A stretch of 64,000 nt of DNA from an uncultured Candidatus Saccharibacteria bacterium (lineage in GTDB: Bacteria > Patescibacteriota > Minisyncoccia > Phycocordibacterales > CAYSCM01): positions 288,001 to 352,000 of the forward strand of contig CAYSCM010000001.1 in the NCBI GenBank assembly GCA_964429815.1, given 5' to 3'. The translations under genes were made by a program, and so were the position numbers. Positions 10,733 to 57,563 of the stretch are shown here, piece by piece. Below the pieces are notes generated by a model. That model did no database searches. It saw only the letters and a list, made by a program, of their open reading frames with translations, and had not been told where the DNA came from. Each line of letters opens with the position of its first letter. Within the stretch, counting starts at the first letter, position 1.

Positions 10733-10805
10733 GGGCGTGTAGCTCAACGGTTAGAGCACCAAGCTTATACCTTGGTGGTTCCTGGTTCGAATCCAGGCAC
10801 GCCCA
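10733..10805 (+). tRNA. tRNA-Ile (anticodon TAT, reads AUA)
   Basis: Cloverleaf with acceptor gggcgtg/cacgccc, anticodon loop cuUAUac, T-loop ttcgaat. No encoded CCA. Confidence 0.7.
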
Positions 10806-12956
10806 CTATTCGAAGTGAAGGTTGGCAGACGCTTCGGCGGCTTTTGTAGCGACGTGTGGGTACTTAGCGAGGGTAGGATCCTCCTCAACAAGCGCCTCGG
10901 CCTCCGTGCGGGCCGCCTCTACCATTTTGAGATTGCTCATCGCTTCCATCGCGATATCCGAGATGCCCCACTGACGCCCTCCGCCGAGCTCGCCCGCACC
11001 ACGCAGCTTGAGATCAAATTCGGCGAGTTCAAAGCCATTTTTTGCTGTTTTGATGGCGCGTAAACGATCCGTGGTCTGCTTTCCCTTAGAATCCGCAAAC
11101 ACGTAGCAATATGCTTGATGTGTGGAGCGAAGCACGCGGCCACGAAGCTGGTGGAGTTGGGCCAGTCCAAAACGTTCCGCCCCCTCGATGACAATTACCG
11201 TCGCATTCGGAACATTCACGCCCACCTCGACAACCGACGTTGCAACCAATATCTGGATTTTATTCGCAGCGAATTGCTCCATAACGGAGTCCTTGTCCGA
11301 CGCACTCATTTTGCTGTGGAGTATGCCAACATCGAATTCCGGAAATACTTCATCAGCGAGGCGTTTCGCCTCTTTTTTCACCGATTTAGCGAGAAGAGCG
11401 AGCTCCTTGGTGGGATCGGGCTCGTCAATGCGCGGGCAAATGACGTAGGCTTGGCGGCCCGCTTTGAGCTCGGAGCGGATTTTTTCGTAGACACTTTCGC
11501 GCTCACTTGGTGCGACGATTTCTGTCACTATCGGCTTGCGTCCCGCGGGCATCTCGTCGAGGAGTGAGAGGTCGAGATCGCCGTAAATGGTAAGGGCAAG
11601 TGTGCGGGGGATGGGGGTCGCCGTCATAGAGAGAAGGTGAGGTGCAATGTCGTCCTTACGTACCAGTTTTTTCCGCTCCCTCGTGCCGAAGCGATGCTGC
11701 TCGTCGATGATGACGTAGGCAAGATTCTTAAATTTAACCGCCTTTTGAATGAGAGCGTGGGTGCCGATGAGGATGGGTATTTCGCCATTAGCGACCCACC
11801 TGAGAAGCTGTGCGCGGGAGATATCCGTAGCACCCTCGCGGTTAACTTTTGAGGGGAACTTTTTACAGCCCGAGCTCGTGAGGAGGCCGATGTTGATGGG
11901 AAGGTGCTTAAATAGCGCTATGAAAGATTCAAAGTGCTGCTTGGCGAGGATTTCGGTCGGTACCATGTAGGCGACCTGAAGATTGCCAAAATTCTGCCCC
12001 GCCGGTCGGGTCATCACGGTGGCGTACGCGGTCGCAGCGGCAACCGCGGTTTTCCCCGACCCCACATCGCCCTCGAGAAGGCGCGACATAGGGTGTCCCG
12101 ATTTCATATCAGACACAATGTTTTCAATAGATTTTTTTTGTGCACCGGTGAGGGGGAAAGAAAAGCGTGACGTAAATTCACTGATGTCGCGCTGCTCGAG
12201 TGCAATTTTGAACGATTGATGGTGTTCGTACTCACGACGCTCCTTAAACTTTCCGACCTGAATAAAAAATACTTCCTCAAAGGCGAAGCGCTTTTTTGCC
12301 GAAATTGAATCCCTAAGCGTTTTTGGGGTGTGGATCCACACCAGAGCGGCGGCTTTGGTGGGGAGGTGGTAGCGCTCGATGATCTCGGCGGGAATTGGGT
12401 CGACGATTTTCTCCAGAATGCCGCTTTTGAGGACACGGTCGATGGCATAGTAGAACCACTTCGAGGTGATGCCTCGGCTCTCGGGGTAGATGGGGTAGAG
12501 GCTCGAGGCGCTCATATCGGAAAACATGGGCCCCGTGCCGGCCTCGTTTATGTGAGCGGCTTCGATTTCGGGATTACCAAAGTACACACCCGATTTTCCC
12601 GAGCCGACTTTGCCGGCAATTTTTACAAAACTCCCGTCGGGATGCATTTTCGCGATGTAGGGCTGGTTGAACCAAATGAGTTTGACCTTGCCGCTCCCGT
12701 CCTCGAGGTAGCCCTCCGCAATGGGGACCTTGGAGCGGAAGGCGCGGCGTGTTTTGGGCCCTTTGAGAACGCCGTAGAGCGTTGCGGCCTCACCCGGGGC
12801 GAGCGTCGCCACCGTCTTCGTCCTCCCTAAATTTTCGTAGCGGGTCGGGTAGTGGGAGAGGAGGTCGTCGATCGTTGCGATGCTGAGTTTCCTGTGGGCC
12901 CGTTTTTGGACTTCTGAAATACGAAAATGTTTCTCGACGGCGTCGGTGAGTTCCAT
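10806..12956 (-). CDS. recG: ATP-dependent DNA helicase RecG
   Basis: N-terminal wedge/OB domain, GDVGSGKT Walker A, DEQHRFG motif II, helicase C-terminus. TATACT 7 nt upstream of ATG on the minus strand. Confidence 0.9.
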   Translation of the reverse strand: MELTDAVEKHFRISEVQKRAHRKLSIATIDDLLSHYPTRYENLGRTKTVATLAPGEAATLYGVLKGPKTRRAFRSKVPIAEGYLEDGSGKVKLIWFNQPYIAKMHPDGSFVKIAGKVGSGKSGVYFGNPEIEAAHINEAGTGPMFSDMSASSLYPIYPESRGITSKWFYYAIDRVLKSGILEKIVDPIPAEIIERYHLPTKAAALVWIHTPKTLRDSISAKKRFAFEEVFFIQVGKFKERREYEHHQSFKIALEQRDISEFTSRFSFPLTGAQKKSIENIVSDMKSGHPMSRLLEGDVGSGKTAVAAATAYATVMTRPAGQNFGNLQVAYMVPTEILAKQHFESFIALFKHLPINIGLLTSSGCKKFPSKVNREGATDISRAQLLRWVANGEIPILIGTHALIQKAVKFKNLAYVIIDEQHRFGTRERKKLVRKDDIAPHLLSMTATPIPRTLALTIYGDLDLSLLDEMPAGRKPIVTEIVAPSERESVYEKIRSELKAGRQAYVICPRIDEPDPTKELALLAKSVKKEAKRLADEVFPEFDVGILHSKMSASDKDSVMEQFAANKIQILVATSVVEVGVNVPNATVIVIEGAERFGLAQLHQLRGRVLRSTHQAYCYVFADSKGKQTTDRLRAIKTAKNGFELAEFDLKLRGAGELGGGRQWGISDIAMEAMSNLKMVEAARTEAEALVEEDPTLAKYPHVATKAAEASANLHFE

Positions 12957-13020
12957 GGGCCCTAGTATACGTTGGATAGGGAGGTTGTGAGAGGAGCGGG
13001 AATGACGCTACGATGGGGTA

Positions 13021-16211: not shown

Positions 16212-16276
16212 ATTCAGAAAACCGTCGTCAATCCCCATAAGGGTATTTTAGCGCTTCTAAAGACGACTTGTTGAGG
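16212..16276 (-). repeat. attC-like repeat copy A (degenerate R' end)
   Basis: In gene orientation CCTCAAC lies directly after the VOC stop codon, followed by conserved gggattgac... Shares >70% identity with copies B and C. Confidence 0.4.
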
Positions 16277-16287
16277 CTCTCAGGTCG

Positions 16288-18322: not shown

Positions 18323-18387
18323 ATTCAACTTTTAGAGGTCAATCCCCGCAAGAGTATTTTGGTGGATTCAATGCCGACTTGTTGAGG
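18323..18387 (-). repeat. attC-like repeat copy C
   Basis: In gene orientation, 65 nt from CCTCAAC (R''-like) to GTTGAAT (perfect GTTRRRY), with imperfect internal inverted repeats. Lies between the hydrolase stop and the YdeI start. Confidence 0.45.
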
Positions 18388-18436
18388 CACTCGGGTCGGA
18401 GTCTATAAAGCAGTGGGCTTACTAAATTGCCTGAGG

Positions 18437-19431: not shown

Positions 19432-20061
19432 CTAATGCGCCAGTGCGATGAGGACGACTTCGCGCGCTCCGGGAAGCCGGAGCGCGCGTTTTGCTTCCGA
19501 GAGCGTAGCACCGGTGGTCATGACGTCGTCGACGACGATAAGAAGGCCCTCCGGCAAGGCTCCGGTCAGAGCGAAAGTCCCTTCAACATTCTGAAGCCTC
19601 CCCTGCCGGGAGAGCGAAGTCTGGGGCGCTGTGTCGCGCATCTTTTTTAAAAGTCCCGCGACACGGGCCTCGCCGAGCCTTCGTGCCGCAACGGCGAGAA
19701 CAAGCTCGACCTGGTTAAAACCCCGCGCACGCAGGCGCTCTTGCGAGAGCGGAGAGGGGATGAGAACGAGCGGGCGCTCGAGCACGCCCTCGTCTTCCAC
19801 AAACGACAGCAGGGCCTCGGCGAGTGCGCTTCCGAGAATCTCCGCACTGCGCCTATCCCTTCTGTACTTAAGCTCTCGTATGAGCGCGCAGACAAGGGGA
19901 TCTTTGTAGGAGGAGAGGACATGTATACCGTCGACAACGGTGCCGAAGGAGAATTTCGAAAGCGCTTCTGCGTCGCTTGTCGCGGCGATGAGCGCGGCTT
20001 CTCTGCGTTGCGGCAAGAGGAGGTTGAGAAGTTCCAAAAGCGCACGGCGAACTTTCTCCAT
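19432..20061 (-). CDS. comF: ComF-family phosphoribosyltransferase (competence protein ComFC-like)
   Basis: VVDDVMTTGATL PRTase motif. Divergent from pilM. Confidence 0.65.
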   Translation of the reverse strand: MEKVRRALLELLNLLLPQRREAALIAATSDAEALSKFSFGTVVDGIHVLSSYKDPLVCALIRELKYRRDRRSAEILGSALAEALLSFVEDEGVLERPLVLIPSPLSQERLRARGFNQVELVLAVAARRLGEARVAGLLKKMRDTAPQTSLSRQGRLQNVEGTFALTGALPEGLLIVVDDVMTTGATLSEAKRALRLPGAREVVLIALAH

Positions 20062-20115
20062 GACCTTAATCTAGCCACGCTAACGTTGTGGGCGCAACGG
20101 GGTATACTACAAGGA

Positions 20116-21252
20116 ATGGTACGTTTAGGTGCTTCACTTTCTTCGCTTTTTGGCGGTGTGTTTTCGCAAAAACCCGCCGAAAGCGTCGTGGGCGTCGACA
20201 TAGGCTCTTCTTCTATAAAGGTCGTACAGTTGCGGCGTAAGTCCGGCGTTCCCGTCCTTGAGACGTACGGCGAGCTCGCGCTCGGCCCTTACGGCGGAGT
20301 CGAGATCGGTCGCGCCACGAATCTAGGGCCCGACGTCATAGCCAAAGCGCTCAATGATGTTGTGCGCGAGGCCAATGTCACCGCAACCTCCGGCGGCTTC
20401 TCCATCCCCTTCAGCGCCTCACTCATTTCACTCATCGAGCTTCCGCAGGTGCCTCCCGGTCAGCTCGCCCAGATGATCCCGCTCGAGGCGCGCAAGTACA
20501 TCCCCGTCTCAATCGGCGAGGTGACGCTCGACTGGTTCGTCATACCCAAAGAAGAAGCGCGCTACCTGTCCCTTTCGGAAGATAAGGAAAAGGCGCCGGA
20601 AGCGTCCAAAATAAACGTGCTCCTTGTCGCTATCCACAATGACACGCTCAGCAAGTACCGCGACATCATAAAACAGACCAAGCTTACACCAGGATTTTTC
20701 GAGATAGAGATCTTCAGCGCCGCTCGCGCTTCACTCGAGCAAGGCATTGCACCGGTCATGGTCCTCGACCTCGGGGCTGCGACCACGAAGCTCTACATCG
20801 TCGAGTACGGCATCGTGCGTGCCTCCCACAACATCAACCGCGGCGGGCAGGACGTGACGCTCGCACTTTCCCGCACCCTCGGCGTTTCCGTCCAAAAAGC
20901 GGAGGAGATGAAGCGCGAACTCGGGCTCCTGCCGGGGCAAAACGGCACGGGGGTATCGGAGACGGCGCTCCTCTCCCTCGAATACATTTTTTCGGAAGCC
21001 AATCGTGTGCTTCTCTCCTATGAGCGGCGTTTCAATAAAAACGTCAGCAAGGTGGCCCTCGTCGGCGGCGGAGCCATTATGAAGGGACTTCTTGAGGTCT
21101 CGAAAAAACATTTCCAGACGGACGTTGTGCTCGGGAACCCTTTTGCGAAAGTCGAGGCTCCAGCGTTCCTGGAGCATGTTTTGCGACAGGCCGGGCCGGA
21201 ATTTTCCGTCGCGACGGGACTTGCCCTTCGAAAGCTCTCCGAGCAGGGATAA
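20116..21252 (+). CDS. pilM: type IV pilus assembly protein PilM
   Basis: VGVDIGSSSIKVVQL actin-like ATPase N-terminus. Start at ATG 20116 after TATACT (20103-20108). The longer track ORF overlaps comF. Confidence 0.8.
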   Translation: MVRLGASLSSLFGGVFSQKPAESVVGVDIGSSSIKVVQLRRKSGVPVLETYGELALGPYGGVEIGRATNLGPDVIAKALNDVVREANVTATSGGFSIPFSASLISLIELPQVPPGQLAQMIPLEARKYIPVSIGEVTLDWFVIPKEEARYLSLSEDKEKAPEASKINVLLVAIHNDTLSKYRDIIKQTKLTPGFFEIEIFSAARASLEQGIAPVMVLDLGAATTKLYIVEYGIVRASHNINRGGQDVTLALSRTLGVSVQKAEEMKRELGLLPGQNGTGVSETALLSLEYIFSEANRVLLSYERRFNKNVSKVALVGGGAIMKGLLEVSKKHFQTDVVLGNPFAKVEAPAFLEHVLRQAGPEFSVATGLALRKLSEQG

Positions 21253-21297
21253 CTTGCTTGGAAGAGAATGTGAGCGTCGCCTATACTATAGAGTGAA

Positions 21298-21945
21298 ATG
21301 GAACCGAAGTTCCGTACATCTTTCATTCCAAAGCAGCCCATCGTGGCCGTCCCGGCGAAATCAACGCGTCGTGGCGGCGGGCTTCTCTTTCTCGTCGCGC
21401 TCATAATTTTTCTTGCTGCAGTCACCCTCGCCGGCGCGGTATTTCTCTACCAGCAGTACCTCAAGCAGGCGATAAGCTCCAATAAAGCTTCCCTTGAACG
21501 CGCACGGGCCGCGTTCGAGCCGGCGCTCATCCAGGAACTTGAGCGGCTCGACAGCCGCATAACGGTCGCCGGGCAGCTTCTCGGGAAACATACCGCTCCG
21601 GCAGAGCTTCTCACCTTCCTCGCCGACAACACGCTCCAGGACGTGCGCTTTACCGACTTCAATTACACCGCATCTGCGGACAAGATATCGCTCACCATGA
21701 AAGGGGAAGCCAAAAGTTTCGCCGCGGTCGTCCTACAATCGGATGCATTCGCTAAAACCCACGATCTCCACGAGCCTATTTTCTCCAATCTCAATCTCGA
21801 CGATAGGGGGAATGTCCAGTTCGACTTCGCCGCGTACGTAGAACCCGGCCTCGTTTCCTACGCCGCGTCTCTCGATCGAGGGCTCGGCGCAGCCGGTACG
21901 CAGCAGGGGACGAATGGTTCACAGCACGCCACCTCAACACCATGA
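21298..21945 (+). CDS. pilN: PilN-like pilus assembly protein
   Basis: Single N-terminal transmembrane segment plus a coiled-coil periplasmic domain. TATACT 9 nt upstream. Confidence 0.5.
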   Translation: MEPKFRTSFIPKQPIVAVPAKSTRRGGGLLFLVALIIFLAAVTLAGAVFLYQQYLKQAISSNKASLERARAAFEPALIQELERLDSRITVAGQLLGKHTAPAELLTFLADNTLQDVRFTDFNYTASADKISLTMKGEAKSFAAVVLQSDAFAKTHDLHEPIFSNLNLDDRGNVQFDFAAYVEPGLVSYAASLDRGLGAAGTQQGTNGSQHATSTP

Positions 21946-22484
21946 TAAAGTTCCTTATTCCCATCATCTTCGTTGGCACCGCAGCCGGGCTCTTCTTCGG
22001 CTACATCGACCCCACATACTCGAGCGTGAAAGGGCTTAAGGGGGAGAACCAGCAGTACTCCGATGCGCTCGATAAGGCCAAAGAGCTCCAGGCAGTGCGC
22101 GATCGCCTCCTCTCCAAGTACAACACCTTCCAGGGCTCCGACCTCGACCGTCTCCAGAAGCTCCTGCCGGATGCCATCGACAACGTGCGTCTCATCCTCG
22201 ACCTCGATAACATGGCAAGCCGCTACGCAATGCGCACTCGCAACGTCACCGTAAGTAACGAAAGCGCTCCCGCGCAAGGAACCGTTGGGCCGGACGTAAA
22301 CCGTTTCGGCACGGCGACCATCACCTTCTCGGTCATCGGCTCTTATGAAAATTTCCTTGCTTACTTGCGTGACCTTGAGACAAGCCTGCGACTCGTCGAT
22401 ATCACGACTGTTGTCTTTCAGGTCAACCAGGGAAGCGACCTCAACACCTACACCATTACCGTGAAGACCTATTGGCTCAAGTAA
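21942..22484 (+). CDS. pilO: PilO-like pilus assembly protein
   Basis: N-terminal transmembrane segment plus coiled coil. ATGA-coupled to pilN. Confidence 0.5.
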   Translation: MIKFLIPIIFVGTAAGLFFGYIDPTYSSVKGLKGENQQYSDALDKAKELQAVRDRLLSKYNTFQGSDLDRLQKLLPDAIDNVRLILDLDNMASRYAMRTRNVTVSNESAPAQGTVGPDVNRFGTATITFSVIGSYENFLAYLRDLETSLRLVDITTVVFQVNQGSDLNTYTITVKTYWLK

Positions 22485-22867: not shown

Positions 22868-24643
22868 ATGGAAAAACTACTTGAACTTTTAGTCGACAAG
22901 GGAGTTCTCAGCGCTTCCGATGCCGCTGCAATAAGCTCGCAAGCCACCGCCGAAGAGGGGGCCGAAGAGCAGCTTCAAAAGCGCGGCGTGAGCGCCGAAG
23001 ACATCCTTACCACAAAGAGCGATTACTACAAAGTTCCCTGGAAGACACTTGGCGACGAGACGGTCGCCATCGAGACCCTGCGCTATATTCCCGAAGAGTC
23101 GGCGGCGCACTACCGCTTCGTGCCGCTCGCACAGCGCGACGGGGTCCTTGAGGTTGGTATCCTCGACCCGGACAATATCGAAGCGCTCGATGCCCTTAAT
23201 TTCATAAGTTCGAAAATGGGTGTGCCCTACAAGGTGTTCCTCATCACCGAAGAGGATTTCAAAAAAGTCATTGGCATGTACAAGGGCCTCTCCTCCGAAG
23301 TGGGGAAGGCGCTATCCGAGCTCGGCGGGGAGCTTGGAGAGGCTGACGACCTTGAGACTCAGCTCTCGGAGGTGAAGGGGAAACTCAAAGAGGACGAAGA
23401 GCACATCAAGGAAGATGCCCCGGTCACGAAGATGGTCGCCACCATCATCCGCTATGCGGTCGAAGGGCGTGCTTCGGACATACACATCGAACCCACCGCC
23501 ACGAATGTGCGCGTGCGTTTCCGCGTCGACGGCGATCTCTACACGTCGCTCACTCTTCCCGCTGCCGTACAGAAAGCCATCGTCGCGCGCATCAAAATAC
23601 TCTCCCTCATCAAGCTCGATGAGAAGCGGAAGCCGCAGGACGGTCGTTTTTCGGCCATGGTCGACAACCGGCGCATCGATTTCCGCGTTTCGACTTTTCC
23701 CACCTCCTACGGTGAAAAGGTCGTGATGCGCATCCTTGACCGCGACAAGGGAGCCATCAAGCTCACCGACCTCGGGATGGAAGAGGAGCAGCTTGCGGCG
23801 GTCCGCGACATGATAAAGCACCCCTACGGCATCATTCTTCTCTCGGGCCCGACCGGCTCCGGTAAGTCGACAAGCCTCTACGCGATGCTCAACGAGATGG
23901 ACCGCGAAAAGAAAAACGTCGTCTCGCTCGAGGACCCGGTCGAGTATGACATCCAGGGCGTCGCGCAGTCTCAGGTCCGCCCGGAGATAGGCTATACGTT
24001 CGCTTCGGGGCTCCGTTCTATACTGCGCCAAGACCCGAACGTCATCATGGTCGGCGAGATCCGTGACAAGGAAACGGCCCAGCTTGCGGTGCAAGCGGCC
24101 CTCACCGGACACCTCGTCCTCTCGACCATCCACACCAACACGGCTGTCGGCGCAATACCGCGCCTCATCGATCTTGGCGTCGATCCGTTTCTCATCGCGC
24201 CGACCTTGATCGGCGTCATCGCCCAACGTCTCGTCCGTGTGCTCTGTAAGGGAAGCGGCAAGAAAATGCCGGTCGAAGGGAGCATCAAAATAATGCTCGA
24301 GAAACAGTTCGCTGATCTACCCGCCAAGTACCGCAGCCAGATCCCAACCGGAAAGTCCGTCTACGGTCTCGATCCGACGCCAGAGTGCCCCTCGGGGACC
24401 CGCGGGCGCACGGGGGTGTTCGAATTCCTCACCATGGATGCGGCGATCGAATCGATCATCCTCAAGCATCCGGTCGAGGAGGAGATCTGGACCATTGCGC
24501 GCGGTCGAGGCATGTTCACCATGAAGGAAGACGCGATCAAGAAAGCGATGAAAGGAGAGATACCGTTCGAGGAAATAAATACCCTCGGCGGGGCGCTCCT
24601 CACCGACGAAGAAGCGCCGCAAGGGGAAGAGGCGAAGTCATAG
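22868..24643 (+). CDS. pilB: type IV pilus assembly ATPase PilB (GspE family)
   Basis: N-terminal GSPII_E_N domain, GPTGSGKST Walker A, Asp/His boxes. AGGAGG Shine-Dalgarno sequence upstream. Confidence 0.9.
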   Translation: MEKLLELLVDKGVLSASDAAAISSQATAEEGAEEQLQKRGVSAEDILTTKSDYYKVPWKTLGDETVAIETLRYIPEESAAHYRFVPLAQRDGVLEVGILDPDNIEALDALNFISSKMGVPYKVFLITEEDFKKVIGMYKGLSSEVGKALSELGGELGEADDLETQLSEVKGKLKEDEEHIKEDAPVTKMVATIIRYAVEGRASDIHIEPTATNVRVRFRVDGDLYTSLTLPAAVQKAIVARIKILSLIKLDEKRKPQDGRFSAMVDNRRIDFRVSTFPTSYGEKVVMRILDRDKGAIKLTDLGMEEEQLAAVRDMIKHPYGIILLSGPTGSGKSTSLYAMLNEMDREKKNVVSLEDPVEYDIQGVAQSQVRPEIGYTFASGLRSILRQDPNVIMVGEIRDKETAQLAVQAALTGHLVLSTIHTNTAVGAIPRLIDLGVDPFLIAPTLIGVIAQRLVRVLCKGSGKKMPVEGSIKIMLEKQFADLPAKYRSQIPTGKSVYGLDPTPECPSGTRGRTGVFEFLTMDAAIESIILKHPVEEEIWTIARGRGMFTMKEDAIKKAMKGEIPFEEINTLGGALLTDEEAPQGEEAKS

Positions 24644-24694
24644 TCTGTTGAAAAGCGGCGCGGATAGGCTCATGAGGGCGGTATACTGAGGGGC

Positions 24695-25081
24695 ATGGCA
24701 CTCCAGAGCAAATCGATCCTCATCGTCGACGATGACCGGTTTCTCATCGATATGTACTCGCTGAAGTTCAAAGAAGAAGGGTTCACGGTCTCCTCGGCGC
24801 AGGGCGGGGAAGAAGCCATCAGCAAGCTCTCGACTGAAGCTCCGGACGTCGTACTCCTCGATCTCATCATGCCGGGCGTCGACGGCCTCGAAGTGTTGCG
24901 GACCGTTCGGGAAAAGAATCTTGCGAAAGACACCACGTTCATCGTGCTTAGCAACCAAAGCCAAACCGACGACATAGCGCGCGCCAAGGAGCTCGGCGCC
25001 AATCACTACATCGTCAAGGCGAGCGCCGTACCCTCCGAAGTGGTCGCTGAGGTGCGCAAAAAATTAGCACAAACGTCATAA
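24695..25081 (+). CDS. stand-alone response-regulator receiver (CheY-like) protein
   Basis: ILIVDDD ... phospho-acceptor Asp in VVLLDLIMPGVDG ... conserved Lys. Confidence 0.75.
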   Translation: MALQSKSILIVDDDRFLIDMYSLKFKEEGFTVSSAQGGEEAISKLSTEAPDVVLLDLIMPGVDGLEVLRTVREKNLAKDTTFIVLSNQSQTDDIARAKELGANHYIVKASAVPSEVVAEVRKKLAQTS

Positions 25082-25085
25082 TCGT

Positions 25086-26147
25086 ATGGACTATAAAAAA
25101 GAGCTCGTCGAACTTATCGAGACCGTCATAGCGGAGGGCGCTTCCGACCTCCACTTCACCGCCGGTCGACAGCCGACCATCCGCGTTTCCGGCTCGCTTC
25201 TTCCCCTTATCAAAAAACAGACGCTAACACCCGCCGATACCCTCGGCTTCCTCACCGAGCTCTTGCGGCCGGAGAAGAAAAAAGAATTCCTCGACACCCA
25301 GGAGATCGACTTCTCCTACGCCTTTAAGGACAAAGGACGTTTCCGCGGCAACGCTTTTTTCCAGCAGGGCACCATCGCGGTAGCGCTGCGCCTCATTCCT
25401 CGTGACATCCGGCCTCTCTCCGAGCTCAACTTGCCGCCCATTCTCGGAGAATTTACCAAGCGCGAACAAGGTTTCTTCCTGCTCGTGGGTCCCGTCGGGC
25501 AGGGAAAGTCGACCACCCTTGCGGCGCTCCTTGAGATGATCAACCAGGAGCGCTCTGAGCATATCGTGACCATCGAGGACCCGATCGAGTACCTTTTTCA
25601 GCCGAAAAAATCCCTCGTCGAGCAGCGCGAGGTGCGCATCGACACCAAGGATTTCCACATCGCGCTTAGGCAGGTATTCCGTCAGGACGTCGACGTCATT
25701 ATGATCGGCGAGATGCGATCGCCGGAGACCATATCGACCGCGGTCACCGCCGCGGAGACTGGCCACCTCGTCTTCTCGACGCTCCACACCAACAACGCCG
25801 CCCAGACCATCGACCGCATTATCGACTCGTTCCCCTCCGGACAGCAGGAGCAGATCCGCATCCAGCTTGCCGGCTCGCTTGCGGGTATTTTCTCGCAGCG
25901 CCTCATCCCGCGCATCTCCGGGGGGCTTGTGCCGGCCTATGAGCTTCTCATCAATAACGCTGCAGTCGCCAACCTCATCCGTGAAAAGCGCTCCCACGAG
26001 ATAAACACCGTCATCGAAACGGGCGCCGACCAAGGCATGATCGACATGAATCGCTCCCTTGCGGAGCTGGTCCGGCGGGGCGAAATTACGGTGGAAAACG
26101 CCTTCATGCGCTCCCTTAATCCCAAGGTTCTGGAGCGCCTCGTCTAG
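25086..26147 (+). CDS. pilT: twitching-motility / pilus retraction ATPase PilT
   Basis: GPVGQGKSTT Walker A, PilT signature region, about 350 aa. Confidence 0.9.
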   Translation: MDYKKELVELIETVIAEGASDLHFTAGRQPTIRVSGSLLPLIKKQTLTPADTLGFLTELLRPEKKKEFLDTQEIDFSYAFKDKGRFRGNAFFQQGTIAVALRLIPRDIRPLSELNLPPILGEFTKREQGFFLLVGPVGQGKSTTLAALLEMINQERSEHIVTIEDPIEYLFQPKKSLVEQREVRIDTKDFHIALRQVFRQDVDVIMIGEMRSPETISTAVTAAETGHLVFSTLHTNNAAQTIDRIIDSFPSGQQEQIRIQLAGSLAGIFSQRLIPRISGGLVPAYELLINNAAVANLIREKRSHEINTVIETGADQGMIDMNRSLAELVRRGEITVENAFMRSLNPKVLERLV

Positions 26148-26149
26148 CC

Positions 26150-27358
26150 ATGCTTTTCTCCTATAAAGCCATCGACGAAACAGGTGCCGCACGTGAGGGT
26201 ACCATCGATGCGGTCTCGCAGGACGCCGCGATAGCGGCCTTGCAGCGGCGAAATCTGGTCTTGACCTCCATTGGTGAAGCCGGAAAAGGCGGCGGACTCT
26301 CGCTCAATCTCGCTATTTTTGAGAGGGTTAAGTCGAAGGATATTGTCTTTCTCTCGCGCCAGATCTCGACCCTCTTCGAGGCTCAGGTCTCAGCGCTTCG
26401 TGTCTTCCGCCTCCTTGCCGCGGAATCGCCAAGCCCGGTGCTCGGTAAAAAATTGGCCGACGTCTCCGACGAGCTCCAGGGGGGAAGTTCCATCAGCAAG
26501 GCTTTGAGCAAGCACCCCGAGGTCTTTTCCGATTTTTACGTCAACATGGTGCGTGCGGGGGAAGAGTCGGGAAAACTCGACGAGATTTTCCGTTACCTTG
26601 CCGACTACCTCGACCGCTCCTACGAGGTGACCTCGAAGGTGCGCAATGCCCTTATCTATCCGGCGTTCGTCATCGTAACCTTCGTCGTCGTCATGATACT
26701 CATGCTCACCCTCGTCATCCCGAAGCTCTCCGTCATTCTCCTCGAGGCGGGGCAAAAAGTCCCCATCTATACGCGCATCATAATCGGGCTTTCGCAATTT
26801 TTCGTGAACTACGGCGTCTTTCTTTTCATCCTCGCCGGCATCGGCGGCGTCTTCGCCTGGCGCTTCGCGCGCACGAACAACGGGAGCTACTATTTCGATT
26901 CCCTTAAAATAAACATCCCCTACGTCGGAGACCTCTATCGCAAGCTCTACCTCTCTCGCGTGGCGGACAATCTATCCACCATGCTCCAGAGCGGCATCCC
27001 CATGGTGCGCGCTGTCGAGATATCTGCCTCCGTAGTCGGCAATTCTGTCTACCAGAAGGTGCTCCTCGAGACGCTCGAGAGCATCAAGGGCGGTATCTCG
27101 CTCTCCGATACCCTGGCGCGCTACCCTGCGGAGATCCCGGGCATTCTCGTCCAGATGACGCGGGTAGGCGAGGAGTCCGGCGAGCTCGGCTCTATCCTCA
27201 AGACCCTGGCCAAGTTCTACCAACGCGAGGTAAGCAATGCCGTCGACACCTTGGTGGGGCTTATCGAACCGGTCATGATAGTGGCGCTCGGCCTTGGCGT
27301 CGGCATCCTTCTCGCGGCAGTACTCCTACCCATCTACAACATCGCAAGCGCGGTGTAG
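26150..27358 (+). CDS. pilC: type IV pilus platform protein PilC (GspF family)
   Basis: Two T2SSF repeats and three transmembrane helices. Confidence 0.85.
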   Translation: MLFSYKAIDETGAAREGTIDAVSQDAAIAALQRRNLVLTSIGEAGKGGGLSLNLAIFERVKSKDIVFLSRQISTLFEAQVSALRVFRLLAAESPSPVLGKKLADVSDELQGGSSISKALSKHPEVFSDFYVNMVRAGEESGKLDEIFRYLADYLDRSYEVTSKVRNALIYPAFVIVTFVVVMILMLTLVIPKLSVILLEAGQKVPIYTRIIIGLSQFFVNYGVFLFILAGIGGVFAWRFARTNNGSYYFDSLKINIPYVGDLYRKLYLSRVADNLSTMLQSGIPMVRAVEISASVVGNSVYQKVLLETLESIKGGISLSDTLARYPAEIPGILVQMTRVGEESGELGSILKTLAKFYQREVSNAVDTLVGLIEPVMIVALGLGVGILLAAVLLPIYNIASAV

Positions 27359-27482
27359 AGCCCTGCTACGGCCGTCTCGTTATCCACACGCGCCTGCGTG
27401 GGGCATGGGGTAGCGACGTATACTTATGGCGTACGCTTTAGCATAAAAAGCGGTCGAAATTTAACGGTATTAATCAGTAACC

Positions 27483-27977
27483 ATGTTTACAAGAACTACT
27501 ACATCCAAAGGCTTCACCCTCATCGAGCTCCTCGTGGTCATCGCCATCATCGGCATACTCTCCTCGGTCGTCCTTGCTTCGCTTTCGACCGCTCGTGCCA
27601 AGAGCCGTGATGCAGCACGTGTCGCATCGCTCAAGGAAATGGCGAAATCCATTGCGCTTGCGGACGCAGACCCCGCTCCTGCACTTACGACCTGCACGGC
27701 AGCCGGCGCCAAGGCGAACACCTGCAATGGTCCCTCACCGGTCAACTTCGCAAGCTACTGCGACCCAACAGCCGGTTGTGGCGGCACAGCGTGTACGACG
27801 ACCAATGGCTCGGCTTGTCAGTATGCGATAGGCAAGGCAACCCTCGCAACGGCCAACCCAACCACCCAAAGTTGGGAGATCTGTATCTTCCTCGAAACCG
27901 GCGCAGGTTCGCTGAGTTCGGGTATGGTCCATTCCGGCTCCGATACCGGCGGCGGCGTCGTAGCGACCTGCAACTAG
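27483..27977 (+). CDS. type IV pilin paralog 1
   Basis: Prepilin signal KG|FTLIELLVVIAIIGILSSV (class III signal, N-methylation domain). Cys-rich C-terminal D-region. Confidence 0.8.
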   Translation: MFTRTTTSKGFTLIELLVVIAIIGILSSVVLASLSTARAKSRDAARVASLKEMAKSIALADADPAPALTTCTAAGAKANTCNGPSPVNFASYCDPTAGCGGTACTTTNGSACQYAIGKATLATANPTTQSWEICIFLETGAGSLSSGMVHSGSDTGGGVVATCN

Positions 27978-28051
27978 CCTCTATTTCTCACGAAATATCG
28001 AAATCCCCAGCGGTCGCTGGGGATTTCGCTTTATAGCGCTATACTTTTCCT

Positions 28052-28543
28052 ATGAGAAAACCCTATCGCCGCGGCTTCACCCTCATCGAGCTCCTCGTGG
28101 TCATCGCCATCATCGGCATACTCTCCTCGGTCGTCCTTGCTTCGCTTTCGACCGCTCGTGCCAAGAGCCGTGATGCAGCACGTGTCGCATCGCTCAAGGA
28201 AATGGCGAAATCCATTGCGCTTGCGGACGCAGACCCCGCTCCTGCACTTACGACCTGCACGGCAGCCGGCGCCAAGGCGAACACCTGCAATGGTCCCTCA
28301 CCGGTCAACTTCGCAAGCTACTGCGACCCAACAGCCGGTTGTGGCGGCACAGCGTGTACGACGACCAATGGCTCGGCTTGTCAGTATGCGATAGGACTCT
28401 CCTCGGCAATTGGGACCGGTGGCGCGACCACGCAGAATTACCAAATATGTACGTGGCTTGAGACCGGGGCCGGCTCACTTACACAGGGTCCGGTGAGCGT
28501 GCGAAGCGACACAGGAGGTGGCGTCGTGCAAAATTGCATCTAA
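28052..28543 (+). CDS. type IV pilin paralog 2 (tandem duplicate with divergent C-terminus)
   Basis: Positions 28073-28395 are 100% identical to 27510-27832 and diverge afterwards. Own TATACT at 28040-28045. Confidence 0.8.
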   Translation: MRKPYRRGFTLIELLVVIAIIGILSSVVLASLSTARAKSRDAARVASLKEMAKSIALADADPAPALTTCTAAGAKANTCNGPSPVNFASYCDPTAGCGGTACTTTNGSACQYAIGLSSAIGTGGATTQNYQICTWLETGAGSLTQGPVSVRSDTGGGVVQNCI

Positions 28544-28593
28544 ATCCCCAAGTTCTTGGAATTTGTTGTCGGGAGTGGATATATACTTAGTGT

Positions 28594-29103
28594 ATGAAAG
28601 AGTGCATGAAAGAGAAGCGCGGCTTCACCCTCATCGAGCTCCTCGTGGTCATCGCCATCATCGGCATACTCTCCTCGGTCGTCCTTGCTTCGCTCCAAAC
28701 TGCGCGCGCCAAGAGCCGTGACGCTAAGCGCATATCCGACCTGCGCCAGGTACAACTTGCGCTCGAGCTCTACTATGACGTCAATCGGGCATATCCATCG
28801 GCCATCACGACGGCGACCCTCGTGACCCCCGGCTACATCCCTTCGATACCCACGGACCCGACGACAGGCGTTTCGTATAAGTATTCGGTGCGCAATGCCA
28901 CCTGCACCAGCTATCACCTCGGCGCGGACCTCGAACAGACGAGCAATATCGCGCTCAACAACGACTCCGACGCAACGGCCGTCGCCGCAACGAGCGCCAC
29001 GTGCCCCGACGCATCCGTGACGACGAGCGACTTCAGTGGTGGATTCCCGACATGCTCTGCGACCTCGGGTACTCCTGACGGTTGTTATGATCTAACGCCG
29101 TAG
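28594..29103 (+). CDS. type IV pilin paralog 3 (PulG/PilA-like)
   Basis: Shares the identical ~75-nt N-terminal coding block (GFTLIELLVVIAIIGILSSVVLASL). The rest is unrelated. Confidence 0.75.
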   Translation: MKECMKEKRGFTLIELLVVIAIIGILSSVVLASLQTARAKSRDAKRISDLRQVQLALELYYDVNRAYPSAITTATLVTPGYIPSIPTDPTTGVSYKYSVRNATCTSYHLGADLEQTSNIALNNDSDATAVAATSATCPDASVTTSDFSGGFPTCSATSGTPDGCYDLTP

Positions 29104-29169
29104 CGTGCAAGGGAAAACCCGCGCCCGCTCTCAGCGGGGCCCGGTTTCTTTCGCGTTATACTAAGATGA

Positions 29170-29946
29170 ATGGCTCTTATCGGTATTGGCGCGTTCATGC
29201 TCGGAACCATCATCGGCAGTTTCCTTAACGTCGTCGTCCTCCGGCTTGGCTCGGGGCGCTCCGTGACGGGGCGCAGCGCCTGCCTTTCCTGTGGGACGAC
29301 GCTTGAAGCCGTCGATCTCGTTCCTATCCTCTCCTATCTTTTTCTTCGCGGCCGGTGCCGTCGCTGCGGGAGTCGCATGTCAGCCCAGTACCCGCTCGTC
29401 GAGCTTGCGACCGGCATATTGTTTCTCCTCGTCGCACTCCTCCCTTTTTCGCCCTATGAGATGATCTATCTTGCTATCCTCGTGTCCCTTCTTGTCGCCA
29501 TTGCCGCCTATGACATCAGGCACAAAATAGTACCCGATGTGCTCGTCTATCCGTTTATCGCACTTGCCCTCCTCCATGCCGCATTCGCCGCGTTCATCTT
29601 CATTCCCGCCACACCCTTTGCTCTCTATGTAGTCTCCGGATTTTCCTTCGCGCTACCCCTTGTCCTTATCTGGTATCTTTCTCATGGCCGCGCGATGGGG
29701 CTAGGTGACGGGAAGCTCGCGCTCGGACTGGGCTTCATGCTCGGTCCCATCGGGACCATCTCGGCATTCGTCTTTTCATTTTGGAGCGGCGCGCTTGTTG
29801 GGGTTGCGCTCATCGCTATTCAGCGCGTTGCTTTGCGGGCGAGGGGCAAGGCTCTTACAATGAAAAGCGAGATTCCCTTCGCCCCCTTCCTCATCTTCGG
29901 GGCGATGCTCGTAAAGCTCCTGGGAGTCGAGCTGCCGCTTTTTTAA
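29170..29946 (+). CDS. pilD: prepilin peptidase (A24 family) PilD
   Basis: N-terminal CxxC...CxxC zinc motif, DIRH...GLGDGKL catalytic Asp boxes, polytopic membrane protein. Confidence 0.85.
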   Translation: MALIGIGAFMLGTIIGSFLNVVVLRLGSGRSVTGRSACLSCGTTLEAVDLVPILSYLFLRGRCRRCGSRMSAQYPLVELATGILFLLVALLPFSPYEMIYLAILVSLLVAIAAYDIRHKIVPDVLVYPFIALALLHAAFAAFIFIPATPFALYVVSGFSFALPLVLIWYLSHGRAMGLGDGKLALGLGFMLGPIGTISAFVFSFWSGALVGVALIAIQRVALRARGKALTMKSEIPFAPFLIFGAMLVKLLGVELPLF

Positions 29947-29956
29947 TCCCTACTCC

Positions 29957-30697
29957 ATGCACCCTAGAGACGACCACGCTCGATACCCTAAGGGCTTTAC
30001 GCTCGTGGAACTTCTCGTTACGGTCTCTATTCTCGTCGTCATCACTGCTATCATACTCGTGAGCCAAAACCGCTTTGGCGGTCAAATAACTCTCACGAAC
30101 CTTGCATACTCCCTGGCACTTTCCATTCGGCAAGCTCAAACGTACGGACTCGCTGTACGTGAGGTGAACTCCGGAAGCGGAAACTTCTCCGCTGCGTTCG
30201 GCGTCCACTTCGACCCCGCGACGCCGTCCCAGTACATCATCTTCGCGGATCTCGACGGCAACGGTCGCTACACAGACTCAAGCGAGAACTATTCGTTCAT
30301 CAGGATAACGAGCGGCGGCAAGATATCTTCCGTGTGCGGCGTGCTCGCCAATGCCACCAACAAGTGCAACCCCGACATTTCAACCCTCGATATCGTCTTC
30401 AAGCGCCCCAATCCCGACGCGCTCATCAAGAGTAATGTCCTCACCGACACCTATGGCGGCGCCAAAATAGTCCTCACCTCGCCGCAAGGGGATACCCGCT
30501 ACGTCTATGTTGCCGCGACCGGTCAGATCTCGGTCCAGCAGGCCGCCACGACGCTCTATACGCAGGCCTCCTACTATGCGCAGGGGTACTACCAGTCCTC
30601 CTACTACAGCCAGAGCTACTACCAGAGCACTTACTACAGCCAGGGCTACTACCAGAGTTACTACGAGAGTTCCTATCAACCCGGTTATGCATTCTAA
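29957..30697 (+). CDS. minor pilin/pseudopilin with Tyr/Ser/Gln-rich C-terminal repeat tail ending GYAF
   Basis: Prepilin N-terminus KGFTLVELLVTVSIL. C-terminal YYAQGYYQSSYYSQSYYQSTYYSQGYYQSYY...GYAF. Confidence 0.6.
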   Translation: MHPRDDHARYPKGFTLVELLVTVSILVVITAIILVSQNRFGGQITLTNLAYSLALSIRQAQTYGLAVREVNSGSGNFSAAFGVHFDPATPSQYIIFADLDGNGRYTDSSENYSFIRITSGGKISSVCGVLANATNKCNPDISTLDIVFKRPNPDALIKSNVLTDTYGGAKIVLTSPQGDTRYVYVAATGQISVQQAATTLYTQASYYAQGYYQSSYYSQSYYQSTYYSQGYYQSYYESSYQPGYAF

Positions 30698-30710
30698 GTA
30701 TTTCGCGACA

Positions 30711-31292
30711 ATGAAGAGGGACGAAAAGCTTCGCGACGGCGGCTTCACGCTCATCGAGATCCTTGTCGCCATCACCATTTTTGCAATCGTCATGATGATC
30801 GCGGTCGCAGCACTTCTTGCTCTCGTCGACGGCTCTCGAAAAGCGCAAGCGCTCGAGTCGGTCATGAACAACCTCAACTTTGCGCTCGAGAACATGACGC
30901 GCTCCATCCGCGTTGGGACGCTCTATCACTGTCAGACGACGAACACCCCCTCATCAAACCTTCAGACCCCTCAAGACTGCACGACCGGTGGCGTACTCCT
31001 CGCGTTCGAAGGGGCAACGGGGGATACAACCACGAACAGCGACCAGATCATTTACCGCCTTAATGGGGCTCAGCTTGAGCGCAGTACCGATGGCGGTGGC
31101 ACCTTCATTGCCATTACGGCTCCTGAAGTCAATATCCAAAGTTTTGCATTTTACGTGAGCGGCACCACACGGGGGGACGGACAGCAGCCCAGAGTCCTCA
31201 TGACCATACGCGGCATTGCCGGCGTCTCCCCGAAGGTACAAACTCCTTTCTATCTGGAGTCCATGGCTTCCCAGCGCCTTCTCGACCTTTAA
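30711..31292 (+). CDS. minor pilin/pseudopilin
   Basis: GGFTLIEILVAITIF prepilin motif. Start at ATG 30711 (an alternative is ATG 30687, which overlaps the preceding stop). Confidence 0.55.
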   Translation: MKRDEKLRDGGFTLIEILVAITIFAIVMMIAVAALLALVDGSRKAQALESVMNNLNFALENMTRSIRVGTLYHCQTTNTPSSNLQTPQDCTTGGVLLAFEGATGDTTTNSDQIIYRLNGAQLERSTDGGGTFIAITAPEVNIQSFAFYVSGTTRGDGQQPRVLMTIRGIAGVSPKVQTPFYLESMASQRLLDL

Positions 31293-31293
31293 T

Positions 31294-31911
31294 ATGGCCT
31301 CTTTCCAGAGAAAAACCGGATTTACCCTCATTGAGACGCTTGTCGCCATCTCAGTCCTTCTCGTGTCGATCGCGGGACCGCTCACCATCGCTTCTAAGAG
31401 CCTCACCTCCGCCCTTTTCGCCCGCGATCAGGTAACCTCTTTCTACCTCGCGCAAGAGGGCATCGAATTCGTCCGTAATTGGCGCGACAACAATGCGCTC
31501 GCGAGTGCGGCTTGGCTCACGGGGCTTAGCAACTGCATCTCACCGAATGTCTGTTCGGTCGATCCGAAAAATAACCTCATCGTTGCCTGCGCCGGAGGTG
31601 TGTGTCCCGCGCTCAAGTACGACAGTGCTTCCGGTTTTTACAACACTCAAACTGGTGCCAACTCTATATTTACCCGCACTATTAAGTTAACCCAGATAAC
31701 CGCCGATGAGTACGCGATTTCATCAAAAATTTCGTGGACCTCGGGGCTTTTTCCCAAGACCTTTCAGGTACGCGATAACATTTACAATTGGGCGGGCACC
31801 GCCGTCTACGCGCAAGGAGCCTACTACAGCCAAGGCACCTACTATAGCCAGGGCACTTACTACAGCCAGGGCTACTACCAGAGTACCTATCAGTCAGGGT
31901 ACGCGTTCTAA
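31294..31911 (+). CDS. minor pilin/pseudopilin with YYSQG-repeat tail ending GYAF
   Basis: TGFTLIETLVAISVLLV prepilin motif. C-terminal AQGAYYSQGTYYSQGTYYSQGYYQSTYQSGYAF. Confidence 0.55.
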   Translation: MASFQRKTGFTLIETLVAISVLLVSIAGPLTIASKSLTSALFARDQVTSFYLAQEGIEFVRNWRDNNALASAAWLTGLSNCISPNVCSVDPKNNLIVACAGGVCPALKYDSASGFYNTQTGANSIFTRTIKLTQITADEYAISSKISWTSGLFPKTFQVRDNIYNWAGTAVYAQGAYYSQGTYYSQGTYYSQGYYQSTYQSGYAF

Positions 31912-31917: not shown

Positions 31918-34454
<2,537 letters not shown>

Positions 34455-36472: not shown

Positions 36473-36478
36473 TATACT
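36473..36478 (+). promoter_or_regulatory. -10 TATACT 10 nt upstream of ATG 36489
   Basis: cgTATACTagagagcgaa ATG. Confidence 0.35.
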
Positions 36479-38159: not shown

Positions 38160-38348
38160 GGTAATTGGTCACGGATATTTCGCTCGTCGTCGCTCGCGAA
38201 ATTCCGCGACCCCGGCTCGGCATCGAAATCCGCTGATTTCGATATGCCTGCGCCTTGCAATTCCCGCCGCGAGGCAAGTAGTTGCCTCGCTCTCTCCACA
38301 AACCAGAGAACAGAAAAGACACGCAAAAGCGTGTCTTTTCTGTTCTTG
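38160..38348. repeat. R1 repeat family copy 2 (hairpin 38307-38346), abutting the tRNA-Met 3' end
   Basis: Same head motif and hairpin as copy 1. Ends 1-2 nt from the tRNA 3' end. Confidence 0.5.
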
Positions 38349-38420
38349 TTGCGGGGGCGGGAATTGCACCCGCGACCTCAAGGTTATGAGCCTTGCGAGC
38401 TACTGCTGCTCCACCCCGCT
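38349..38420 (-). tRNA. tRNA-Met (anticodon CAT), initiator-like
   Basis: Near-identical architecture to E. coli tRNA-fMet (aGCGGGGUGGAGCAGC...CUCAUAAC...CCCCGCA A), with a 1:72 A-A mismatch. Confidence 0.75.
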
Positions 38421-40138: not shown

Positions 40139-40213
40139 TGTGCCGGGGGACGGGATCGAACCGTCGACCTGACGCTTATGAAACGTCCGCTCTAACCGAC
40201 TGAGCTACCCCGG
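40139..40213 (-). tRNA. tRNA with CAT anticodon (elongator Met or Ile2-lysidine)
   Basis: Acceptor gccgggg/ccccggc, anticodon loop uuCAUaa, T-loop ttcgatc. Confidence 0.75.
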
Positions 40214-40272
40214 CGCAGTCTTACGCTATCATCGTGCCAAGAACTCTACAAGGAGCGCGCTATACTGTGGTA

Positions 40273-43643: not shown

Positions 43644-43666
43644 AAACTGTTGTATACTGGGTCGGT

Positions 43667-46560: not shown

Positions 46561-46661
46561 CGCCGTCTTGATGCGGCGTTTCTCGCCCTTGTCGCGCTCG
46601 GCTTCCAGAACTGTAGCGCGATGGCGGGACGTGCTGCGAATAACGGGGCTATACTACTCTC

Positions 46662-48263: not shown

Positions 48264-48334
48264 TGCGGGATCGTCTAATGGTAGGACACCAGGTTCTGGC
48301 CCTGGTAATCTAGGTTCGAGCCCTAGTCCCGCAG
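48264..48334 (+). tRNA. tRNA-Gln (anticodon CTG)
   Basis: U1:A72 acceptor (tgcggga/tcccgca), 3-bp D-stem, anticodon loop uuCUGgc. Confidence 0.75.
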
Positions 48335-48450
48335 CAGCAGTCAGCGCAGTATCGTGCGAGACCGGAGAGCCTCAGAACTCAAAGGTCCGCCGATTCGCTG
48401 AATGTACTATTCCGTTATTGCATATCCGGTGAGTCCGGTATTCAGAACAA

Positions 48451-48477
48451 AAATCGCCCCTTACAGGGCGATTTTTG
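48451..48477. terminator. bidirectional intrinsic terminator
   Basis: aaatcgcccc-ttac-agggcgattt with flanking A and T runs. Confidence 0.55.
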
Positions 48478-48493
48478 TTGGCCGACTATTTCT

Positions 48494-49825: not shown

Positions 49826-49917
49826 ATACCCAAAGGAATGACGCCTCCCGCCAGGAAGTCCAACGTCTAAGTTGGTAACCTTCAGAGCCGATTTGACTTT
49901 GATTCATTTGATGCATT

Positions 49918-50229
49918 ATGATGGTAGGTATGGAAGATTCAGTTTCAGGGTACAAAGCAGTTAAACGGCTCGCGGTAGAGCGGCCTGATTGGCTCCCTAT
50001 CATTCGAGAGTGCTTGAATTTGCGGAAAGAGATTCACAACACTGACTTTGCTGGCGCATGGGTATATCAGCGTCTTCAAGAGAAGGGCGGACCGAAATTT
50101 TCAAATCTGCGTCTTCTTGTTAGCTTTGGCATCTTGAAGAAAGAGGCGACCTCACGCGGTGGTCGACGCGCGTACTACTCCTTCGTCGATCCTGAGGGTG
50201 TCGAGAAAGCATTAAGCGAGCTTTCATAA
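49918..50229 (+). CDS. hypothetical protein
   Basis: ORF. Preceded by the agttggtaacct motif. Confidence 0.3.
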   Translation: MMVGMEDSVSGYKAVKRLAVERPDWLPIIRECLNLRKEIHNTDFAGAWVYQRLQEKGGPKFSNLRLLVSFGILKKEATSRGGRRAYYSFVDPEGVEKALSELS

Positions 50230-50233
50230 TTTT

Positions 50234-52419: not shown

Positions 52420-52476
52420 ATCGAGAAGTCATCGAAAAAAACATGGCGACGAAATGACACAGACCATAAATATCCC

Positions 52477-56177: not shown

Positions 56178-56178
56178 C

Positions 56179-56397: not shown

Positions 56398-56527
56398 ACC
56401 TATAAGCGTCTATTCCGTTATGGGATATTCCAAAATGGAATATTCAATGTTAGGCTACGAATGTCCGACAAAGGCAAGAGTTGGTAACCTCCTTCGCAAG
56501 CCTCCGAATCTAAGTTAGGAACACCAC

Positions 56528-57560: not shown

Positions 57561-57563
57561 AAA

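Follow-up and report, generated by a model that had tools for sequence, protein, structure and literature searches.

Two complete, adjacent pilin genes in a Paceibacteria type IV pilus operon form a recombination mosaic

In Streptococcus sanguinis two major pilins, PilE1 and PilE2, which are 78% identical and have identical N-termini, are assembled into heteropolymeric pili; either of them alone suffices, with a difference in motility speed (PMC6497953). In the lpl cluster of Staphylococcus aureus, a conserved tract inside each open reading frame (ORF) is the site of homologous recombination, and the copy number differs among relatives (Tsuru & Kobayashi 2008, PMC2568036). In cultivated Patescibacteria, major pilins are known to be important in both host binding and competition (PMC11623550). 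Here we describe a pilin locus in a stretch of 64,000 nucleotides (nt), the window, taken from contig CAYSCM010000001.1 (positions 288,001 to 352,000; assembly GCA_964429815.1). Three pilin genes, pil1, pil2 and pil3, follow each other between pilC and pilD, and the first two share an identical 5' part that gives way to diverged 3' ends.

The locus is closest to the S. sanguinis system (PMC6497953, PMC10628169), since in both cases two complete pilin genes with identical N-termini and about 80% identity (78% there, 83% at the amino acid (aa) level between pil1 and pil2) lie next to each other inside the pilus operon, and, as in the monoderm S. sanguinis, no outer-membrane secretin gene was seen at the locus. 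The sequence thus has the features of a two-major-pilin pair, with mature residues 1-107 and the next Gly identical. The differences between pil1 and pil2 are, however, confined to the last 47 residues, whereas those between PilE1 and PilE2 include a deletion in the alpha1-beta1 loop, and co-assembly, established for PilE1/PilE2, is predicted for pil1/pil2. As in the lpl cluster, a conserved tract would serve as the recombination site within each ORF, and copy number varies among relatives; the protein family is another one, the tract is 5'-terminal in the mature coding region and not central, and the window species is represented by one genome. The Saccharibacteria TM7x also has patescibacterial type IV pili, with small and highly expressed major pilins, PilA1 and PilA2, that serve host binding and motility (PMC11623550), but each of the two belongs to a pilus system of its own at its own locus, and they are not tandem mosaics, and the window pilins belong to a different, Paceibacteria family with a Cys-rich head.

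Direct comparison confirmed that pil1 and pil2, both complete prepilin genes, share 323 nt exactly, as an earlier note on this DNA had reported; the match cannot be extended by a single base on either side, and it is the sole long repeat within the window (Table 1). In both copies the match starts with the codon for Gly(-1), at the prepilin cleavage site. Mature Ile107 has the last identical codon, so that the identity, said before to run through a CQYAIG peptide, stops one codon earlier at the nucleotide level: the following Gly codon differs at its third base only, and this Gly is also identical. The repeat had been called a perfect tandem duplication, which is right as to its exactness but not as to a head-to-tail arrangement, because the repeat is direct, with a period of 563 nt, and 240 nt of non-identical sequence (the 3' end of pil1, the intergenic region and the leader of pil2) lie between its copies. 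The third gene shares only the beginning of this tract, in agreement with the approximately 75 nt first noticed: its exact matches measure 77 nt to pil2 and 74 nt to pil1 (28621-28694 = 27510-27583). At the related locus L005 and the near-identical L006 and L009, the longest exact match between the two pilin types is just 11 nt.

Beyond the repeat, the tails of pil1 and pil2 could be aligned over their full length, with 54% nt identity and 65 mismatches in 142 aligned nt. About half of the residues are identical, and both Cys residues that pair in the C-terminal disulfide are kept, as are the LETGAGSL and SDTGGGVV motifs; the tails are homologous, and the view that the C-terminal D-region diverges completely had to be abandoned. 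When differences were counted separately at synonymous (pS) and nonsynonymous (pN) sites, the 107 codons of the 5' part had 0 differences, and the 47 codons of the 3' part reached a saturated pS of 0.83 with a pN of 0.33. For orthologues from other genomes compared with pil1 and pil2, pS was 0.68-0.79 and pN 0.15-0.23 over the 5' part, and 0.65-0.88 and 0.22-0.41, respectively, over the 3' part; over the 5' part, 30-37% of the nucleotides differ between pil1 and its orthologues in other species. The identity of the repeat thus greatly exceeds what chance or constraint on the protein would produce. With an identical 5' part next to 3' codons that have reached synonymous saturation, the pair is a recombination mosaic, in which the tails are as old as between-species divergence and the 5' part is of zero age.

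Each tail has its closest relatives outside the window. The pil1 tail is 78% identical in aa to that of family member P0005, 70% to P0021 and 56% to that of pil2, which ranks only 16th, while the pil2 tail is best matched externally by P0008 (70%) and P0010 (65%), with pil1 outside the top 25. Both tails are under purifying selection (pN/pS about 0.4), as old paralogue or allele types would be. Across 110 members of the family, mean pairwise identity is 0.47 for residues 61-117 and 0.48 for residues 118-164. The middle of the head, which is identical in pil1 and pil2, thus varies as much as the tail family-wide, which excludes protein constraint as the cause of the identity; by the same numbers, the C-terminal segment is not a hypervariable antigenic region. 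Constraint on protein or codons is further rejected by the 5' part itself, which is saturated at synonymous sites between species, and by the neighbouring paralogues of locus L025, which encode the same N-terminus at just 63-80% nt identity. We likewise rejected a rapid divergence of a hypervariable D-region after duplication, given the saturated tail pS, the pN/pS, the closer relatives elsewhere and the ordinary variability of the tail within the family.

In a survey of 80 species-level Paceibacteria pilus loci, the longest exact match between pilin genes of the same locus was recorded for each. Between pilC and pilD, the syntenic loci L005 (GCA_027451965.1), L091 and L092 each carry a single type-A pilin, the type of pil1, and a single type-B pilin resembling pil3; the second type-A copy in the window is therefore lineage-specific. 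A larger array was found in L094 (GCA_964457915.1, CAYWFM010000002.1; 6001-8999), with five pilins between pilC and pilD, three of type A and two others. The type-A copies, which are the first three, have 93-100% nt identity over the 5' ~90 nt and then mostly 45-65%; the first two of them are 100% identical over these ~90 nt and have the same leader peptide.

Exact tracts of at least 40 nt between neighbouring pilins were present in 8-9 of the 80 loci, and in most of the others neighbouring pilins have just 11-15 nt in common. The tracts lie at the 5' end in L075 (80 nt), L084 (65 nt), L057 (55 nt, in doubt owing to Ns in the second gene), L055 (47 nt) and L043 (42 nt), internally in L060 (107 nt) and L068 (96 nt), and at the 3' end in L025 (329 nt) and L087 (46 nt). 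Compared with these relatives, the window tract is unusually long for the 5' type. In L025 (CAYHLC010000001.1; 7291-8192) two adjacent type-B pilins that differ by 1 aa form the reverse mosaic, with 63-80% nt identity over the first ~100 nt and complete identity over the remaining 329 nt, a pattern that only gene conversion over an old pair produces and that is decisive for the mechanism. Judging from these loci, patchy concerted evolution of neighbouring pilins is recurrent and undirected in this clade, and because the patches fall at 5', internal or 3' positions, undirected gene conversion fits better than a programmed switch.

The products of all three genes have the hallmarks of class III signal peptides, i.e., a short basic leader, Gly(-1) and a K or R followed by GFTLIELL with Phe1 and Glu5, and all exceed the Pfam cut-off for N_methyl with 33-39 bits. 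In the alignment of pil1 and pil2, Gly-1, Phe1, Glu5 and all Cys residues are kept in both. The AlphaFold model of pil1 (predicted local distance difference test score, pLDDT, 93.6) has the lollipop fold expected of a type IV pilin, with a long alpha1 helix (13-60) and a globular head whose strands (132-137, 147-152 and 159-161) are confined to the C-terminal part and form its beta-sheet. The family to which pil1 and pil2 belong is populous and metagenome-only, its members being labelled Adlerbacteria, Sungbacteria or simply 'bacterium'. With 40% identity to pil1, pil3 represents the conserved second pilin type of the locus in relatives. Both pil1 and pil2 are genuine, full-length genes, tandem paralogues of the first pilin type ('type A', putative major).

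They also look like separate, intact transcription units. The ATG of both pil2 and pil3 is preceded at 6 nt by a TATACT box, and a TATACT close to a start codon is the arrangement expected for leaderless mRNAs from the -10-to-start spacing. These -10-only boxes were found by hand and by pattern search. In the window TATACT occurs 24 times against 9.8 expected, often 6-10 nt upstream of start codons, and TATACT-N6-RTG occurs five times against 0.26 expected, pil2 and pil3 accounting for two of the five. For pil1, a weaker TATTAAT box lies 8 nt before the ATG, and a TATACT box is found at 27419-27424, 58 nt upstream. Each gene thus probably has a -10 box and leaderless promoter of its own (a clear case in pil2 and pil3, a weaker one in pil1), and because each has a predicted promoter, both pilins would be made. 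Between pil1 and pil2 there is a GC-rich hairpin with a 13-bp stem, a likely terminator; the scan matched it on the - strand, and on the + strand CTTTAT comes after the stem. The pil1-pil2 and pil2-pil3 intergenic regions are weakly similar and have the motif AAATCCCCA in common (shuffle p ~0.02), to which we give little weight. Boxes of the TATACT/TATAAT kind also stand 6-10 nt before starts at 24682-24687, 21282-21287, 36473-36478, 43653-43658, 46650-46655 and 12964-12969 (- strand), and no Shine-Dalgarno sequence was evident between such boxes and start codons window-wide; this suggests that leaderless mRNAs may be widespread in this genome of the candidate phyla radiation (CPR).

Taking into consideration what was directly observed, namely: (i) the mosaic, (ii) the different ages of its two parts, (iii) the integrity of both genes and (iv) the recurrence in related genomes, we consider, with a probability of roughly 0.7, that pil1 and pil2 are tandem paralogues that underwent a recent homologous exchange of their 5' parts, and that both are intact and likely co-expressed isoforms. 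The 3' ends, the downstream intergenic regions and the leaders of the two genes would be old and diverged, and a recent RecA-type homologous recombination between the copies would have made the 5' 323 nt identical, either by non-reciprocal gene conversion or by an unequal crossover (plus exchange). The left edge of the exchange would be the start of pil1/pil2 homology, at the Gly(-1) codon, and a similar but shorter tract, of 74-77 nt, would extend the pattern to pil3. Direct repeats of this sort would also permit RecA-dependent deletion or re-duplication of the 563-nt unit, and such losses and gains would explain the 1-3 type-A copies seen among relatives. The earlier note had proposed a recent duplication followed by C-terminal replacement: the mosaic it implied stands, and replacement is one of two routes, the other being an old duplication with recent 5' gene conversion.

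As alpha1 and two thirds of the head are the same in pil1 and pil2, both proteins would be processed by PilD, fit one filament lattice and be able to enter the same filament, where they would expose different C-terminal surfaces, made of the beta-sheet and the disulfide loop, in a mixed or alternative filament. The most likely outcome would be two co-expressed major-pilin isoforms comparable to PilE1 and PilE2.

Several points weigh against recent exchange between co-expressed paralogues. The arrangement rests on one contig: pil1 and pil2 are recorded in a single NCBI contig of 501,704 bp, searches with the exact proteins of pil1, pil2 and pil3 gave no independent copy, and scans of JGI metagenome contigs for two exact tracts gave 0 matches. 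There is no canonical TATACT box at leaderless distance from pil1, and a simple scan of 27300-29250 found 0 sites for a full sigma-70 -35/-10 promoter. It is from the genes that we infer the expression of both pilins and their co-assembly in one filament. Finally, an old duplication with recent 5' conversion and a duplication with import fit equally well. Gene conversion between tandem paralogues is itself textbook, and the locus, with its recent recombination tract between tandem pilin paralogues, is a new example in a poorly studied phylum and no new kind of system.

The import route belongs to the alternative that fares best, although we regard it as unlikely: a very recent tandem duplication of the whole unit, followed by allelic replacement, in one copy, of the segment running from the 3' end through the intergenic region to the next leader by DNA of another strain. 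The duplication could have come from an unequal crossover between the 5' tracts of a type-A pilin and pil3, and the new segment from, for example, transformation, with the flanking conserved 5' tracts as recombination anchors. The exchanged unit would then resemble a cassette, and the S. aureus lpl cluster is a precedent for an evolutionary unit of this sort (PMC2568036). Identical tracts do bound each of the variable blocks (27833-28072 and 28396-28617) at its two ends, closer relatives of either C-terminus are found elsewhere, and the intergenic regions show the weak similarity mentioned above. The pil2 leader and upstream region, moreover, resemble those of pil3 in an exact match that extends 3 nt further upstream, in leaders ending in Arg-Gly and in TATACT-N6-ATG. 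However, no donor was found, whether strain or allele, the tails are only 70-78% identical to their closest relatives in the database, and L025, with a 5' part diverged at synonymous sites only, requires gene conversion and not import. Judged from one genome, the end product looks the same as that of 5' conversion.

An assembly artefact appears improbable, be it the placing in tandem of two strain variants of one pilin gene with different C-termini, or the collapse or expansion of a repeat array. The assembly is of the metagenome type, pil1 and pil2 each come from a single NCBI contig with no independent copy in the JGI metagenome contig scans, and an exact repeat of 323 nt exceeds typical short reads. 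Within the 240-nt spacer, however, which is unique sequence, the pil1 stop codon is followed by a hairpin, a -10 box and a leader unlike that of pil1, and this series runs directly into the second copy of the repeat; a mixture of two strains would not produce it. A graph of the form A-R-B-R-C has one traversal only. Independent assemblies of other species (L094, L084, L043 and L075) also have 2-3 type-A pilins with identical 5' tracts.

A last alternative would make the identical tract the site of a programmed antigenic or phase switch. Systems of the pilE/pilS type consist of an expressed locus, promoterless and 5'-truncated silent cassettes, and a G-quadruplex (G4) initiator beside the expression locus; a Moraxella-type switch (tfpQ/tfpI with the invertase Piv) has inverted repeats around alternative C-terminal segments and an adjacent invertase; and a diversity-generating retroelement has a reverse transcriptase and a template/variable repeat pair differing at adenines. 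In the window, both copies have an ATG and a leader peptide, with the TATACT box before pil2 and the weaker one before pil1; no further type-A pilin fragments were found by tblastn and blastn, and the sole motif of four G3+ runs spaced by N1-7 lies at 8066-8085, 19 kb away inside ftsH, with no G4 near the locus. The repeats are direct, there is no inverted repeat of at least 40 nt in the window and no adjacent invertase, and the sole recombinase, of the large serine type, is encoded 20 kb away next to tRNA-Gln, in an island of its own. No reverse transcriptase domain was detected by Pfam among ~50 ORFs, and the 65 of 142 tail differences show no adenine bias. As in Neisseria pilE/pilS, a constant N-terminal part is combined with alternative C-terminal parts and gene conversion is the likely process; in contrast to Neisseria, the copies are full-length, promoter-proximal and only two, without a G4 or small-RNA initiator, and their tails are old types under purifying selection. 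Thus, although the constant 5' region with alternative C-termini is superficially alike and pilus-mediated host attachment is important in cultivated Patescibacteria (PMC11623550), a programmed switch is highly improbable for a locus with direct repeats, no silent copies in the window and a C-terminus that is not hypervariable in its family; of the earlier suggestion, the identical tracts as gene-conversion substrates survive, and the pilE/pilS-like antigenic variation does not.

The recent exchange between pil1 and pil2 is of interest since type IV pili are the best-supported organelle of Patescibacteria for host attachment and DNA uptake, and the identity of the pilins in the filament bears on the hosts open to these episymbionts. 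A Paceibacteria genome can hold what appear to be two intact major-pilin isoforms with a common assembly core and a different C-terminal surface. As neighbouring pilins in this clade repeatedly exchange sequence, CPR pilin phylogenies and 'allele typing' need to be done segment by segment. A broader idea, speculative and in our view quite unlikely, is that the conserved pilin 5' tract of host-dependent CPR bacteria acts as a portable recombination anchor, by which units of variable C-terminus, terminator, promoter and leader are duplicated, deleted and exchanged within the array and between strains. If so, between-strain exchange could use DNA taken up via the same pilus, the pilus surface, and hence host range or phage sensitivity, could change in a cassette-like manner without dedicated switching enzymes, and about 10% of Paceibacteria species would bear fresh traces of the process.

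Table 1. Positions of the pilus genes, of the pilin repeat and of the associated signals in the window.
Feature	Position	Strand	Remarks
pilM	19741-21252	+	Pfam PilM_2 1.6e-32; alignment subcomplex of the type IV pilus machine
pilN-like ORF	21298-21945	+	Alignment subcomplex
pilO	21942-22484	+	Pfam PilO 1.9e-05; alignment subcomplex
pilB	22868-24643	+	Extension ATPase; Pfam T2SSE 6e-119 plus MshEN
Response-regulator receiver gene	24695-25081	+	Stand-alone, between pilB and pilT; Pfam Response_reg 7.9e-25
pilT	25086-26147	+	Retraction ATPase, 353 aa; Pfam T2SSE 5.9e-43
pilC	26150-27358	+	Platform protein; Pfam T2SSF 2.3e-60, two stretches
pil1	27483-27977	+	Complete prepilin gene, 164 aa; type-A Cys-rich pilin; leader MFTRTTTSK/GFTLIE
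Repeat copy 1	27510-27832	+	From Gly(-1) through Ile107 into the following Gly codon (two bases); identical to copy 2
pil1 diverged 3' end	27833-27977	+	47 codons; C-terminal beta strands and Cys134-Cys163 pair
Hairpin between pil1 and pil2	27999-28028		GC-rich, 13-bp stem, likely terminator; terminator-like scan
TATACT before pil2	28040-28045	+	-10-like box, 6 nt upstream of ATG; leaderless-type promoter
pil2	28052-28543	+	Complete prepilin gene, 163 aa; leader MRKPYRR/GFTLIE; ORF; N_methyl 4.4e-10
Repeat copy 2	28073-28395	+	323 nt; identical to copy 1
pil2 diverged 3' end	28396-28543	+	48 codons
TATACT before pil3	28582-28587	+	-10-like box, 6 nt upstream of ATG
pil3	28594-29103	+	Type-B pilin, 169 aa; ORF; N_methyl 1.8e-09; counterparts in L005, L091, L092, L094
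pil3 tract equal to pil2	28618-28694	+	77 exact nt; equals 28070-28146
TATACT before pilD	29157-29162	+	
pilD	29170-29946	+	Prepilin peptidase/N-methylase; Pfam A24_N_bact 5.3e-30, Peptidase_A24 3.4e-12
Minor-pilin-like genes (four)	29957-30697, ~30696-31292, 31294-31911, 31918-32436	+	First three match N_methyl
ligA	32439-34454		

The gene order pilMNO-pilB-response regulator-pilT-pilC-pil1-pil2-pil3-pilD-minor pilins is that of a type IVa-like pilus operon, according to Pfam and to synteny with the 80 Paceibacteria loci, and the locus is the pilin-coding part of such an operon on the chromosome of a member of the Paceibacteria (CPR/Patescibacteria). The window PilC is 59-66% identical to PilC of the 80 Paceibacteria/Parcubacteria species representatives (GTDB), with a best match of 66%, so that the window species itself is absent from these representatives. 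The order pilM-pilN-pilO is also found in L005 and L094, and the minor-pilin-like genes occupy the position of the minor pilins of L005. The response-regulator gene has a TATACT box of its own; in L005 and L094, pilT directly follows pilB. PilM has 503 aa and its PilM_2 domain begins at residue 151, leaving an N-terminal extension of ~150 aa, while the L005 homologue has 359 aa. Minor-pilin-like genes 1 and 3 encode C-terminal low-complexity tails of ~40 aa rich in Tyr, Ser and Gln (30560-30697 and 31810-31911), with repeats of the (S/T)YY(S/A)QG type and both terminating in GYAF; among 94 related loci a similar tail was seen only in L013, making it a rare appendage.

Away from the pilus operon, a probable integrated island at 48264-59000 adjoins tRNA-Gln (48264-48335), and GC content falls to 45-47% at 50-56 kb. 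It carries the large serine recombinase (48494-49825), an EcoRI-like adenine methylase (50234-51331), a GmrSD/HNH endonuclease (51328-52419), a 998-aa protein without a Pfam match (53181-56177), a helix-turn-helix protein and a ParB-N6/N4 DNA methylase (57564-58925). A 61-nt intergenic element occurs twice on the same strand, at 16227-16287 and 18338-18398, 2.1 kb apart, with 79% identity and no Rfam match; the Rfam scan of the window matched only tRNAs and a transfer-messenger RNA. The window has a tRNA-Ile with the anticodon TAT (10733-10806) and two tRNAs with the anticodon CAT (38348-38420 and 40140-40214); the TAT-anticodon tRNA-Ile is uncommon in bacteria, in which AUA is usually decoded by a lysidine-modified CAT tRNA.

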